Program-made: the position numbers
Assembly (NCBI GenBank): GCA_039028155.1
Contig: JBCCIS010000007.1
Coordinates: 67,624 to 131,623 of the forward strand
Direction of reading: 5' to 3'
Length of the DNA: 64,000 nucleotides
Source: Pseudomonadota bacterium
GTDB taxonomy: Bacteria; Pseudomonadota; Alphaproteobacteria; SP197
Shown here: one piece after another, positions 45,001 through 57,000 of the stretch
Layout: each line of letters starts with the position of its first letter
Numbering within the stretch: the stretch's first letter is position 1

Positions 45001-48000
45001 CGTCCGATACGGCCCGAAGACGAGGAGCATCATTACGCCTTCATCGACAAGCTGACGCCCGAAGACGTTCGCTTCCGCTTCTTCGGCCAGGTCCAACAAC
45101 TGCCCCACAGCCAGATGGCGCGTTTGACGCAGATTGACTACGACCGGGAAATGGCGTTCGTCGCCATTGGCCCCAAAGGCGATACGCTTGGCGTGGTACG
45201 CACGGTCACGGATCCCGACAATGAGATGACGGAGTTCGCCATCGTCGTGCGGTCTGATCTGAAGGGCCTGGGGTTGGGCGCTGCGTTGATGCGCAAGATG
45301 ATCCGTTACTGCCGCTCGCGGGGCACGGCGCACATGGCCGGCGAGGTGCTGCGCGAGAACCGCCGCATGCGGGACTTTACCTCGGGTCTGGGATTTGAGG
45401 AGCACAACGTGCCCGATGATCCCAACGCCGTGCGCGTTGTGCTGGATCTTCGGGCGGCGCCAACGCCGGAGATGGCAACCGCGTCGCGTTAGCCGCGACG
45501 AGCGGCTTGGAGGGCTTCCGGGGTATCGATATCGACGAGAACCGCGTCGTCGTCGGCCGTGACCTCGACAACCAGGTCTTCGTTTTCGCCCAGCAAATGA
45601 CGCGCCCCGACATCGCCCGCGACCGATCGCATCGCTTCAAAAAAGCGGCGGCCCCACAGAACCGGGTTGCCGCGTTTGCCGCGATAGGTCGGCAGCACGA
45701 TGGCGCGGCCTTCCGTCGGATCGAACGCGGCAATCAGGCGGTTGAGCAGGGCCGGCGTCAGGCCCGGCATATCACCCAGGCACACGATGACGCCGTCGCA
45801 GTCGTCCCCGGCCGCCTCCAGGCCGGCGCGCAGCGACGTGCTGAGACCTTCCGCATAGTCCGGGTTGTCCGTGGTCGTCAGGTCGAGGCCGTCGAGCGCG
45901 TCTCCCACCGCCTCTGCCTCGTGGCCCGTGACAACGATGGTTGCATGGGCCTGGGAGGCGACGGCCGCCTCGGCAACGTGGCGGATCATGGCGCGGCCGT
46001 TGATCGGCGCGAGCAGCTTGTTGTCGCGGCCCATGCGGCGCGACTGACCGGCCGCCAGTACCAGGGCGGTGACGCGCGGCACGCGCCCTTCCTGCGGCTC
46101 GCGCCGTGGCTGCGGACGTGAAGGGATCTCTTTCAGCAATCCGCCGACGCCCATTGCCATGATGTCGTTGCGCGTGACCGCGAGACCGGCCAGCATGCGC
46201 TGCAACACCCAGTCGAAGCCGTTCAGCTTCGGTGACCGCGCACAGCCGGGCAGTCCGAGAACCGGCTTGCCCTGCCGTTCAGCCAGCAGCAGCAGATTGC
46301 CGGGATCAACCGGCATGCCGAAGTGCTGGATCGCGCCGTCAGCCTGTTCGATGGCGGCGGGAATGACATCGCGGCGATCGGTAATCGCCGAGGCGCCATA
46401 GATCAGCGTCATATCAACGCCTGGCGTGACACGTGCAATCTCGGATGCCAAAGCATCCGCATTGTGGTGGCACCGGCCTTCAGCAACGACGTCACTACCC
46501 AAGGCCGCCAGCCGATCGGCGACAACGCGGGCCGTCTTGTCCAGTACCTTGTCCGGCGTGGCGTCCGTCATTGTCAGGATCAGACCGATCCGCTGCTGCT
46601 TGAAGGATGCGAGACGAATGACCGGATCGTCGCGCGTGGCAATGGCTTCCCACGCCGCCACACCGTCGCGCGGTGCGGCGAACGGGATGACCTTGATGGT
46701 CGCGACCATCTGGCCGGCTTCGGCCATGGCGAACGCGGGCAAGGTGGCGACGGTCAACGACTCATCGAGTGAGTTGAGCTCTTCGATACGCGCGCTATCC
46801 AGCACGACGACGCCAGCTTCCTTGGCGATCAGATTGACACGGCCGGTAAAGGGCGCGGCGGTATCGATCCCCGGTCCCGCCATGGCCGCGGCTGCGCGTT
46901 GCGCGGCGTCATCTTCATGAACGTCATCGGGGCCGAGCTGGGCGACAATCACATTATCGACGCCGGCTGCTCGCAGCGCCGCGATGTCATCACCGGAGAG
47001 CACCAAGCCCTTCTTCAGCGTGCGGTCGCCACAACGGGTGCTGTGGGCGAGGATGGCGCCTTCGGCCAAGCCGGTGGCGGTGGGGCCGAATTTCAAGGCG
47101 ACGCCTCTCGCCGTACAGCGGTGATCTCCGCCATGATTGATAGCGCAATCTCCTGTGGCGATTTGGCGCCGATGTCGAGGCCGACTGGTGCGTGAATGCG
47201 GGCGATCTCATCTTCGGAGAAACCCGCTTCTAGCAGGCGCTCGACCCGCTTGGCATGCGTGCGTTTGCTGCCCAGCGAGCCGAGGTAGAGCAGCGGCGCC
47301 CGTAAGGCGACGTGTAAGGCGGGATCGTCGATCTTGGGGTCGTGGGTCAACGTGACCACGGCAGTTCGGTGATCGGGCCTGAGGTCCGTTAGCGCTTCAT
47401 CGGGCCAGGCGTCGATGATCGTCACGCCGGCAAACCGCTCGCGGTCGGCAAAGGCGCGGCGTGGATCGATCAGCGTCACGTCGTAACCGGCAATCGCGGC
47501 GTAGCGGGCCAAAGGTTCGGCAATATGCACAGCGCCGATCACGATCAACCGAAGCGGCGTATTGAAGACATGAAGGAACAGACGGCGCCCGTCGACCTCG
47601 ACCGTTTGCGAACGGTCGTCCTGAATCGCCTGGTCAATCGCCTCCGTCATCGCCAAAGGTGCTGCGCCGTTCGATGGTGTCACCAAGACCTGTTCACCAT
47701 CATCAAGCCATGTGGCGACGACGGCAGGTTGCCGGTCGCGGCGCGCGCGCTGCAGCGCTTCAAGTGTCTGCGGTGTCACGCGACCGGCTCGACGAAGACC
47801 TGAACCGTGCCGCCGCAGGTCAAACCGACTTCCCAAGCCTGTTCGTTGCTGACCGAAAACTCCAGGTTACGGGTCTTGCCGTCTTTGAGGGCGGCAAGCG
47901 CCTCCTGGATCACCGCGCCTTCGATGCAGCCGCCGGAAACCGAACCGCGGAACGTGCTGTCATCACGCACGGCCAGTTGGCTGCCGACCGGACGGGGGCT

Positions 48001-54000: not shown

Positions 54001-57000
54001 GATTGAACGTGGCGCTCTCAAATGGCGTGTCGGCCAGGACCTCGTTGGCGACCCACACGGCAATCGGTATGCGTGTCGCGTAAACCACGGCGAGCAGGAC
54101 CAGTACGAGACCAAACCCCACCGCCGCTATCAACGCGAGGCGCCGGCGCGGCCGCTTGGGCTGCGGCGGTTCAGTCATGGGAAACTGCAAGGGCGGGCTG
54201 GGACCGAGGCGCCGTCATGGCACCATCATAGCACCGGGTCGACAAAGACACATGGCCGGCGTCACCGTGCCATCACACGGATGACGGCGGTTCGCCGGTC
54301 ACAATGTCGCGACCGGCAACCAAGGATGGTGTCGGGTGCCTAGCTTGCTGCCGCCACCGCGCGTTGCGCCATGACGGTGACCAGGTGCGCGCGATAGTCG
54401 GCGCCGGCGTGGATATCGCTGTTCATGTCATCGTCCGGGACATGGATGCTGGCAAGCACCTGATCGCTGAAACTCGCTGCCAACGCCTGCTCCATCTCCG
54501 CGACACGGAAGACGCATGGGCCTGCGCCGGTCACGGCGACACGGATTCCATCCACCGTTTCGGCGACCATCACACCGACAATCGCGTAACGCGATGCCGG
54601 GTTGGGAAACTTGGCATAGCTGGCTCGGCGCGGCTTGGGGAAGCTGACGGCGGTGATGAGTTCGCCGTCGTCGAGCGCGGTCTCGAACATGCCGGCGAAG
54701 AATTCATCGGCCGCGATGTCGCGTTTGTTCGTGTGAACCGTCGCCGCCAAACCAAGGACCGCCGCCGGATAATCGGCGGCCGGGTCGTTATTGGCGAGCG
54801 ATCCGCCGATGGTACCGCGGTTGCGCACCTGGAAGTCGCCGATGCCGCCCGCAAGTTCGGCCAAGGCCGGGATCGCAGCGCGCACGTCAGCCGACGTCGC
54901 AACATCGTTATGGGATGTGCCGGCGCCGACCCTGACGCCTTGACCGTCAACCGTGATTCCCTTGAGATCGCCAAGGCCGCCAAGATCAATCAGATCGGAC
55001 GGACCGGCAAGACGCAGCTTCATGCTGGGCAGAAGGGTGTGGCCACCGGCGATGTAGCGGGCATCGTCGGCCCCTTCGAAGAGGCTGGTGGCTTCGTCTA
55101 GAGAAGATGGTTTGTGATAGGCAAAGCTGTACATCGTCCGATCGCCCTCAGCCGCTTGCCATGGATTGGGCGGCGGCCTTAATCGACTTCACGATGTTGT
55201 GGTAGCCGGTACAGCGGCAAAGATTGCCCTCCAGATGATGGCGGATCTCCTGCTCGCTCGGGTCGGGGTTGTTCTTGATGAGATCGATCGCACTCATGAT
55301 CATGCCAGGCGTGCAGAAGCCGCACTGAAGACCGTGATTGTCGCGAAACGCCTCTTGCATCGGGTGGAGCGTGTCGCCGTCGGCGATGCCCTCGATGGTC
55401 GTGATGTCGTGGCCGTCGGCCTGGACGGCGAGCAGCGTGCAGGATTTGACCGAGGCGCCATCAAGGTGGATGACACAGGCGCCGCACTGGCTGGTGTCAC
55501 AGCCGACATGAGTGCCGGTCAGCCGCAGGTGTTCGCGCAGAAACTGGACGAGCAGGGTACGTTCCTCGACCTCGCCCGTGACCTCTTTTCCGTTCACTGT
55601 CATCGATACGGCGATGGCCATCCGTTTTCTCTCCGTTAATCCGGTCCGCACGGCGCCGCAGCAGCGCCTGGCCGGCAGTTTCGAAGCCTGCCACCGACAG
55701 GTCAAGGAGATGCTGCATTTTGGAGAGGTCGTGGACCGCGCAGACCCCGCGACGTATGCTCTGCGCGGATCGGTCGAACACGTGAGGATAAGGATTTATG
55801 GCAGGACACGGTCATAACGAACCGGAATCAGACATCGCGATCAGGGTCAAGGCGATGGAAAGTCTGTTGGCCGAGAAGGGGCTGGTGGACCCGGTCGGCA
55901 TCGACCATCTGGTCGACTATTACGAAACCCGCGTCGGCCCGCGCAACGGTGCCGCCGTGGTCGCGCGCGCCTGGACCGATCCGGACTACAAAGCGCGCCT
56001 GCTGGACGATGCCAGCGCAGCCATCGCCGAGCTGGGTTTTTCCGGGCTGCAGGGCGAGAACATGGTGGTGGTGGAGAACACACCGAAGGTCCACAACATC
56101 GTCGTCTGCACGCTGTGCTCGTGTTATCCGTGGCCGGTGCTCGGCCTGCCGCCGGTCTGGTACAAGAGTCCACCTTACCGCTCGCGCGTCGTGCGTGAGC
56201 CGCGCGCGGTCCTGGGCGAGTTCGGCCTTGCCGTGCCGAAGGATGTCGAGGTGCGCGTCTGGGATTCCAGTGCCGAGATCCGTTATCTGGTCCTGCCCAT
56301 GCAGCCCGAGGGTACCGCTGGCAAGAGCGAGGAAGAGCTGGCCACGCTGGTGACGCGCGACGGCATGATCGGCGTCGCGGCGGTCTAGGGGGACATCATG
56401 GACGGCATACATGACATGGGCGGCATGCATGGCTTTGGCCGTGTTGAACGCGAAGAAGACGAACCGGTGTTCCATCACGAGTGGGAGAAACGCGCGTTCG
56501 GTATCTCACTCCAGGTAGCCGACAGCGTCGGCTTCGTCGATGATCACCTGCGCCGCAGCATCGAGCGTGTTCCCGCCGATACGTACCTGCGGGTGACGTA
56601 TTACGAGCTTTGGATGCGTTCGATAGAGGCGATCCTTGAAGAGAAAGGCGTACTGACAATCGCCGAAATCGATCAGCGTGTCGAGGAGCTGAAGCGGGGT
56701 GAAGGCAATGGGTGAGGTAACCTTCGAAGAGATTGTTGCGGCGGTCGAAGGTGGTGCCACGACGCGCAGGCCCGATGTCAAGATCGAGCCGCGTTTCAAG
56801 GTCGGCGACGTCGTACGCGTGAAGAAGGGGCACCCGTCCCATCACACGCGGTCGACACGCTACTCGCGCGGCAAGACGGGCGAGGTGGTGAAAGCCCACG
56901 GTGTCTTTGTCTATCCGGATACAAACTCCGAATGGCAGGGCGAAGACCCACAGCATGTCTATACGGTCTGTTTTTCAGCCAGAGAGATTTGGGGCGAGGA

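Follow-up and report, generated by a model that had tools for sequence, protein, structure and literature searches.

A form II cox-type molybdenum hydroxylase cluster that lost its catalytic-subunit gene by clean deletion and retained its partner and maturation genes

A 64,000-nucleotide stretch of a Pseudomonadota genome (contig JBCCIS010000007.1, positions 67,624 to 131,623; referred to below as the window) carries a cox-type molybdenum (Mo) hydroxylase cluster in which coxS and coxM, the genes of the small and medium subunits, lie side by side in the company of a full set of maturation genes, and in which the gene of the large catalytic subunit, coxL, is missing. Comparison with a graded series of relatives shows the order of events at this locus, the deletion of coxL from between coxS and coxM, and the continued purifying selection on the genes that remain. 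We propose, with a probability of about 0.6, that CoxS, CoxM and the maturation chain act in trans for one or more large subunits of the xanthine dehydrogenase (XDH) family encoded elsewhere in the genome.

RESULTS

Absence of coxL from the window

Genes of the window were called from a six-frame listing of open reading frames (ORFs) combined with Pfam scans. The two subunit genes are both on the minus strand and are separated by only 13 nucleotides (nt). The small [2Fe-2S] subunit gene coxS (55148..55621; 157 aa) starts with the ATG at 55621, with GGAGAG ahead of it, and encodes two [2Fe-2S] domains, Fer2 and Fer2_2 (6.7e-35), in which 8/8 cluster cysteines are kept. The medium FAD subunit gene coxM (54340..55134; 264 aa; protein identical to MEM7120799.1) matches FAD_binding_5 (1.5e-48) and CO_deh_flav_C.

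Pfam found no Ald_Xan_dh or MoCoBD domain in any of the five ORFs of at least 650 aa in the 64 kb. Searching the whole window by tblastn with six CoxL proteins of relatives gave no CoxL sequence, intact or degraded, at E<0.1, apart from one match (E=0.003) that lies inside coxS and is an artefact; there is thus no pseudogene remnant of coxL. The gene is absent within 45 kb on one side of the cluster and 8 kb on the other. An earlier note on this DNA had stated that no molybdopterin-binding large subunit of ~800 aa is encoded in the 64 kb, and both searches bear this out. As for ORFs that might be a large subunit in disguise, those of 790, 792, 699 and 898 aa were identified as an aminotransferase/kinase fusion, a transketolase-like E1 protein and two ADP-forming acyl-CoA synthetases, and the fifth as YdbH.

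The same coxS-coxM junction is found in L001, an independent short-read Logan contig of 4.6 kb obtained by exact match to the window CoxM, and in two long-read ENA contigs, L162 and L163. Its repetition in independent contigs indicates that the adjacency of the two genes is not an assembly artefact.

The position of coxL in related clusters

Scanned with CoxM, the GTDB representative genomes and the JGI metagenome contigs yielded 160 related loci with 60-69% identity, mostly from Rhodospirillales-like Alphaproteobacteria and some from Beta- and Gammaproteobacteria. With eight closer relatives included, the gene upstream of coxM could be read in 158 informative loci. The commonest gene order is coxG-S-L-M-D-E-xdhC(N)-xdhC(C)-mocA, with a gene of about 790 aa in the S-M interval and, in most relatives, coxG directly upstream of coxS. 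The gene upstream of coxM is coxL in 130 of the 158 loci and coxS in the other 28 (about 18%). The active-site loop AYRGAGR is present in 51/58 coxL ORFs of relatives of the S-L-M type, and the CoxL of the nearest relatives has it too. The window locus is a form II (AYRGAGR-class) cox-type Mo-hydroxylase cluster, the class being read from the CoxL of its relatives since the window itself has none.

By sequence, the window CoxS and CoxM are ordinary members of this type, sharing 60-89% identity with their counterparts in S-L-M clusters. Hidden Markov models (HMMs) built from the CoxS and CoxM of S-L-M-type loci score them at 296.9 bits (family mean 283.8 +/- 10) and 448.1 bits (family mean 447.9 +/- 14), respectively. 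The corresponding proteins of eight other loci lacking coxL also score as typical S-L-M members. CO is reported not to be the substrate of form II enzymes (PMC6794299). The accessory set of the window equals that of form II coxSLM clusters in content and order, with coxG upstream and coxD, coxE, xdhC and mocA downstream, as in about 40 relatives. The window cluster differs from them in lacking coxL and in being broken by a ydbH-ynbE-ydbL operon and by a PAP2/nitrile-hydratase block.

The Oligotropha carboxidovorans cluster coxMSLDEFG, to which the earlier note referred the locus, is a form I cluster encoding a Mo-Cu carbon monoxide dehydrogenase, with the gene order M-S-L and the loop AYXCSFR. 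It shares with the window the three-subunit family and the CoxD (AAA), CoxE (VWA) and CoxG protein types. In contrast, the relatives of the window have S-L-M and AYRGAGR, no coxF is seen in the window cluster, and XdhC and MocA are part of it. Because both gene order and active-site class differ, Oligotropha is the wrong template for the position of coxL, and the form II S-L-M type is the appropriate one.

The deletion scar

In the coxL-containing relatives L164, L166 and L167, the stop codon of coxS overlaps the start of coxL as ATGA, and coxM is preceded by 10-14 nt of spacer containing GGAGG or GGGGA. The window, L162 and L163 have the TGA stop of coxS, a 13-nt spacer and the ATG of coxM in immediate succession. 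Junction comparison with relatives identifies this spacer (55135..55147, minus strand) as the scar of the deletion. Its sequence, GGGCGATCGGACG, resembles the L-M spacer of relatives, GGGAAACAGGACA. The same 13-nt spacer in the three genomes and its homology to the L-M spacer indicate one deletion in their common ancestor. The event removed essentially the coxL ORF alone and left a translatable S-M pair.

The ends of the deletion in the window clade show weak similarity only (AATGA / AATAA), so no claim of microhomology is made there. A different picture is seen at L033, where a direct repeat, CCGGTAAA[CT]GG, flanks coxL (about 7555-7600 and 9960-10000), and its sister L056, which lacks coxL and has a single copy, GGTAAACGG, at the S-M junction (1625-1670). 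The loss in the L056 lineage looks like a repeat-mediated deletion.

Order of events in the window lineage

Relatives with CoxM identity >69% came only from a CoxM search of a 5.8-billion-protein collection; none was present in the GTDB representative genomes or the JGI metagenome contigs. They form a graded series. The most distant, L167 and L168 (CoxM 74%), have the order Mrp-CYTH-G-S-L-M-YdbH-YnbE-YdbL-D-E-XdhC. L164, L166 and L169 (77-82%) have Mrp-G-PAP2-NHase-S-L-M-YdbH-YnbE-YdbL-D-E-XdhC, where NHase denotes nitrile hydratase and L is a protein of 792 aa. L162 and L163 (87-89%; contigs of 5.53 Mb and 1.64 Mb) have that same order minus coxL, as in the window. The PAP2/nitrile-hydratase block is present in L162-L166 and absent from the more distant L167 and L168. 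The order S-L-M, then ydbH-ynbE-ydbL, then coxD occurs in at least nine loci (L014, L038, L140, L164, L165, L166, L167, L168 and L169).

Relatives that still contain coxL already carry both the ydbH operon and the PAP2/nitrile-hydratase block, so both predate the loss of coxL. The ydbH-ynbE-ydbL operon first came between coxM and coxD in the wider lineage of the window, and the PAP2/nitrile-hydratase block later entered between coxG and coxS. The 2.4-kb coxL ORF was then lost by one precise deletion in the ancestor of the window organism, L162 and L163, joining the coxS stop to the old L-M spacer and leaving the coxS-coxM pair intact and presumably expressible. The earlier note had raised the possibility that S-M-ydbH is a common trait of the lineage accompanied by a distal coxL. 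The arrangement is indeed shared, by L162, L163 and L058, and S-M adjacency is recurrent across the family (28/158), but no distal coxL was seen with it.

L164 (18000-19650) and L165 (18007-19245) have identical CoxM and differ in gene calls downstream of XdhC. The mocA fusion of L164 is cut to a 121-aa fragment, and many genes of L165 are fragmented, coxL included. These differences are probably long-read frameshift errors, which calls for caution in scoring presence and absence on such assemblies.

Purifying selection on the retained genes

The ratio of nonsynonymous to synonymous substitution rates (dN/dS) was obtained from codon alignments of the window with L162, between which dS is 0.5-1.0. 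All divergence between the two arose after the deletion, and dN/dS therefore reports selection since the loss of coxL. The values are 0.083 for CoxS and 0.080 for CoxM, 0.072 for CoxD, 0.118 for CoxE, 0.056 for XdhC_N, 0.096 for XdhC_C, 0.105 for the MocA fusion and 0.104 for CoxG. The same genes in the coxL-containing pair L164/L166 give 0.06-0.21, and the neighbouring genes Mrp and nitrile hydratase alpha give 0.060 and 0.070. Purifying selection on the window cox genes is indistinguishable from that in L164/L166 and on the neighbours.

Search for a relocated coxL

A search of the 5.8-billion-protein collection with the CoxL of L164 listed 120 matches, down to 69% identity. The best of the matches listed have 93, 85, 78 (four clusters) and 71% identity, the 85% match being located in an ordinary S-L-M-YdbH contig. 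As CoxL and CoxM identities track each other among the relatives, an ortholog in the clade that lacks coxL at this locus should have about 80% identity. Among the matches listed (>=69%), no CoxL lies on the 5,528,408-, 1,643,648- or 147,532-bp contigs of this clade, which makes a relocated ortholog unlikely.

Recurrence of the coxL-less arrangement

On the CoxM tree the 28 S-M-adjacent loci fall into 17 groups. The root state is L-M, and parsimony requires at least 16 changes. A clean gap of 2.4 kb at the place of coxL, with conserved flanks, is seen in three sister pairs (L056/L033, L074/L025 and L072/L034). A full maturation chain is retained in the coxL-less loci L023, L056, L074, L075 and L127. 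L007, L013, L082 (about 8829-10795 each) and L094 have isolated coxG-coxS-coxM trios, with no coxL or maturation genes within 10 kb. The neighbours of these trios encode a solute symporter, DUF1499, hydrolases and a gamma-glutamyltranspeptidase, and several species-level genomes share the trio.

The place and number of coxL genes vary as well. When the CoxL proteins were compared by an identity matrix, L018, L030 and L036 were found to have, beside a full cluster, a second CoxL paralog (42-46% to the CoxL of L005) with no coxS or coxM of its own detected nearby, and L054 was found to have a second CoxL (38% to the CoxL of L005) with its own M-like gene ahead. A divergent coxL lies on the opposite strand from S-M in L039, L045, L073 and L081, and the orders S-M-L and L-S-M occur in L053 and L154, respectively. 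Related layouts exist in two annotated genomes. On the plasmid of Neorhizobium petrolearium OS53 (NZ_CP123001.1), coxG-S-M are adjacent and coxL is separate, with two coxL genes near one S-M pair; in Gemmobacter fulvus p1 (NZ_CP076362.1), coxG stands with an adjacent S-M pair and two genes separate coxL from S-M. Both differ from the window in that coxL is within 1-6 kb, whereas the window has none within 8 kb / 45 kb. S/M pairs that are not adjacent to coxL are therefore not rare in themselves. What is specific to the window clade is the documented clean loss of coxL followed by full retention of the remaining genes. In the literature we found nothing specific on shared or orphan S, M or L subunits.

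The maturation genes

The chain downstream of the ydbH operon is on the minus strand throughout. It begins with a coxD-like gene for a MoxR/AAA ATPase (49307..50236; AAA_5/AAA), whose product is 64-72% identical to that of the gene 3' of coxM in relatives. Next are a coxE-like gene for a VWA protein (48087..49310; VWA_CoxE 1.1e-62), the N-terminal half of XdhC (47776..48105; 109 aa; XdhC_CoxI 2.3e-27) and its Rossmann half (47093..47779; 228 aa from the GTG at 47779; XdhC_C 1.5e-43), the two halves being separate ORFs. The last gene, as in about 40 relatives, encodes a fusion of MoCF_biosynth (5.1e-06) with a MobA-like NTP transferase (NTP_transf_3 6e-42) and is a candidate MocA-type cytidylyltransferase (45489..47096). 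These genes overlap by 4, 19, 4 and 4 nt. The coxG gene (58840..59457, minus strand; COXG/SRPBCC, Pfam COXG 1.4e-35), which heads the ancestral G-S-L-M cluster, is located 3.2 kb upstream of coxS, and this distance is occupied by the PAP2 and nitrile hydratase genes. The names, strand and coordinates that the earlier note gave for the genes from coxS to the MocA fusion all agree with Pfam, and its gaps (149 and 33 nt), overlaps (4-19 nt) and coxG distance (3.2 kb) are correct.

It is noted that the two XdhC ORFs (47093-48105, minus strand) overlap by 4 nt and that the split is also present in L162, L163, L164, L165 and L166. As the split recurs in relatives, it reflects two genuine genes, not a frameshift.

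The ydbH-ynbE-ydbL operon

Between coxM and coxD on the minus strand are ydbH (50888..54178, or to 54190 with the ATG start), encoding a predicted AsmA-like intermembrane phospholipid-transport protein, ynbE (50622..50870), encoding a lipoprotein (Lipoprotein_19 1.9e-15; lipobox VAAC), and ydbL (50270..50635), encoding a periplasmic protein with a signal peptide (DUF1318 2e-27). The YdbH-like domain (5.6e-72) covers residues 28-1097, and the protein has an N-terminal membrane anchor with the hydrophobic segment LALIAAVGFGLVLVLLAVVY. The two smaller genes are immediately downstream of ydbH, and the genes overlap or abut; a gap of 33 nt separates ydbL from coxD. The operon has the same three Pfam families, order and anchor, lipobox and signal peptide as the Escherichia coli ydbH-ynbE-ydbL operon (PMC11126948, PMC13464000), for which phospholipid transport between inner and outer membrane has been established by genetics and biochemistry (PMC11126948). 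Unlike the E. coli operon, it is nested in a cox cluster, and the coxM-coxD interval holds ydbH also in L014, L038, L058, L140 and L162-L169, which belong to several alphaproteobacterial lineages.

The coxM-ydbH intergenic region (54179..54339, minus strand) measures 149 nt to a TTG start of ydbH and 161 nt to the ATG called in relatives. Alignment shows a block at about 54205-54259 that is conserved in L162, L164, L166 and L169 and persists in relatives whose coding dS is >1. Within it, at 54225-54233 and 46 nt upstream of the ydbH ATG, is an extended -10-like element, TGCTATGAT, whose conserved form is GGTG[CT]TATGAT. The conservation of the block suggests a promoter belonging to the ydbH operon itself. 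No Rfam family, whether a Moco riboswitch or another RNA, matched at E<=1 between 44 and 61 kb. A consensus scan found 0 promoters and terminators at chance level, and was uninformative. The operon is best seen as an older conserved neighbour without demonstrated functional link to the Mo enzyme. The view of the earlier note that a lipid-transport operon stands in place of the large subunit is not supported, as coxL lies between coxS and coxM in relatives and ydbH predates its loss.

Other features of the window

The insert between coxG and coxS (55798..58586, both strands; Pfam) belongs outside the Mo-enzyme system. It consists of a PAP2 membrane phosphatase gene (57417-58586, minus strand) and four nitrile hydratase genes (55798-57420, plus strand), for the alpha subunit, a beta subunit encoded in two parts, NHase_beta_N (105 aa) and NHase_beta_C (120 aa), and an accessory gene. 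The latter, a third beta_N-like ORF of 128 aa after NHase_beta_C, probably encodes an accessory or activator protein. The four-gene layout is also called in L162-L166. This layout recalls three-subunit enzymes such as toyocamycin nitrile hydratase.

Two paralogous ADP-forming acyl-CoA synthetase-like proteins (CoA_binding, Succ_CoA_lig and ATP-grasp_5) are encoded at 42796-45492 and 31306-33405, both on the plus strand. The former (898 aa) has a C-terminal fusion to a GNAT acetyltransferase, as in Pat-type protein acetyltransferases, and its gene runs convergently to the cox chain and overlaps mocA, the last gene of that chain, by 4 nt. Two tandem paralogs of M17 leucyl aminopeptidase, 458 aa each, are at 20902-23661 (plus strand), near genes for an amidase, an M14 carboxypeptidase and a periplasmic binding protein, and these surroundings suggest a region of peptide or amide catabolism. 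An ORF of 489 aa at 3341-4810 (plus strand) has no Pfam match.

DISCUSSION

Trans action of the retained module

The function that may be assigned to the window locus from its sequence is only that of a Mo-hydroxylase support module. We propose that CoxS and CoxM would supply the FeS/FAD electron-transfer function to at least one XDH-family large subunit whose gene lies elsewhere in the genome. XdhC, MocA, CoxD, CoxE and CoxG would provide the machinery that synthesizes the molybdenum cofactor (Moco), in the form of molybdopterin cytosine dinucleotide (MCD), and inserts it into those large subunits. The partner would be one or several paralogs and not the deleted ortholog. That the S/M pair serves another partner was one of three options in the earlier note, and it is the one that fits best, given that coxS, coxM and the maturation genes stayed under purifying selection once coxL was gone; no such partner was found. 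Precedents for S/M pairs that would work with an unlinked or divergent large subunit are the second CoxL paralogs of L018, L030 and L036, the divergent coxL genes next to S-M in other loci and the two coxL genes of the Neorhizobium petrolearium plasmid.

Several points weigh against this proposal. The window covers 64 kb of a 147.5-kb contig of a metagenome-assembled genome (MAG), and no partner large subunit was found. The CoxL search would miss a gene broken by frameshifts or one on an unsampled replicon, and it sees no paralogs below about 69% identity. Purifying selection proves that genes are used, not what they are used for. The maturation genes could serve other complete Mo-hydroxylases with their own S and M subunits, in which case the retention of coxS and coxM would still need explanation. 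The count of independent losses is rough, because it comes from a neighbour-joining tree of a single protein of 264 aa, and the promoter in the coxM-ydbH gap is assigned from conservation only.

Alternative explanations

An unlikely alternative is a split locus, in which the orthologous coxL has moved elsewhere in the genome and still pairs with the S and M subunits of the window. The position of coxL is flexible in the family, as seen in the S-M-L, L-S-M and opposite-strand arrangements and in Gemmobacter fulvus p1, and purifying selection on coxS and coxM would fit equally well. However, among the matches listed (at least 69% to the CoxL of L164), none lies on the contigs of the clade, where about 80% would be expected, and no coxL lies within 45 kb / 8 kb of the cluster. 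The suggestion of the earlier note that the same coxL is encoded elsewhere is accordingly disfavoured by the lack of an ortholog on the 5.5-Mb and 1.6-Mb sister contigs.

It is rather less probable that CoxS and CoxM act independently of any large subunit, either alone or with a partner from outside the XDH family, the maturation genes being kept for other Mo enzymes. The isolated G-S-M trios without maturation genes (L007, L013, L082 and L094) would be explained in this way, and poribacterial coxM and coxS are reported to be expressed in MAGs without a large subunit (PMC8941161). In the window clade, however, CoxG, CoxD, CoxE, XdhC and MocA, which have a plausible role only with a Moco-containing large subunit, are conserved together with CoxS and CoxM, and the window shows no alternative partner. 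We know of no function of S and M subunits in the cox family that is independent of a large subunit.

That the loss of coxL inactivated the enzyme and left the other cox genes as decaying, non-functional remnants is very improbable. The catalytic subunit is gone with no partner found, and at the scar coxM has a weaker ribosome-binding site than the GGAGG of relatives, as decay might predict. Nevertheless, none of the nine remaining genes is broken in any of the three genomes, and the cofactor-binding cysteines are intact; dN/dS has stayed at 0.05-0.12 over a dS of 0.5-1.0 since the deletion, as in coxL-containing relatives; the family-HMM scores are undiminished; and a coxL-less state with intact coxS and coxM is found in many other lineages. 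The low dN/dS and typical HMM scores lead us to reject this explanation. The last possibility, also from the earlier note, that insertion of ydbH displaced coxL and put a lipid-transport operon in its place, appeals to ydbH being the only large gene adjoining S-M and to form I clusters (M-S-L) having coxL after coxS, but it is refuted by the at least nine S-L-M-ydbH loci, by a scar that lies between coxS and coxM and not beside ydbH, and by coxL-less loci without any ydbH (for example L023, L056, L074, L075 and L127).

Implications for the family

Clusters of the form II cox type abound in soil and marine bacteria, their substrates are unknown, and surveys usually count coxL on the assumption of one large subunit per S/M set. 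The repeated precise loss of coxL, with S/M and Moco insertion genes left under selection, suggests sharing of these genes among CoxL paralogs. There is about an even chance that in many Proteobacteria the form II S/M and maturation genes constitute a shared module acting in trans for CoxL paralogs, from which the cognate coxL has been cut out cleanly time and again (an inferred 16 events or more in the 158 loci). The ydbH operon is without such importance, being a conserved neighbour. The window clade and the coxL-containing relatives with CoxM 77-82% provide a natural experiment. If sharing in trans is correct, the annotation of such clusters, the reading of an "orphan" coxL and the choice of subunits to co-express in the search for substrates would all change.

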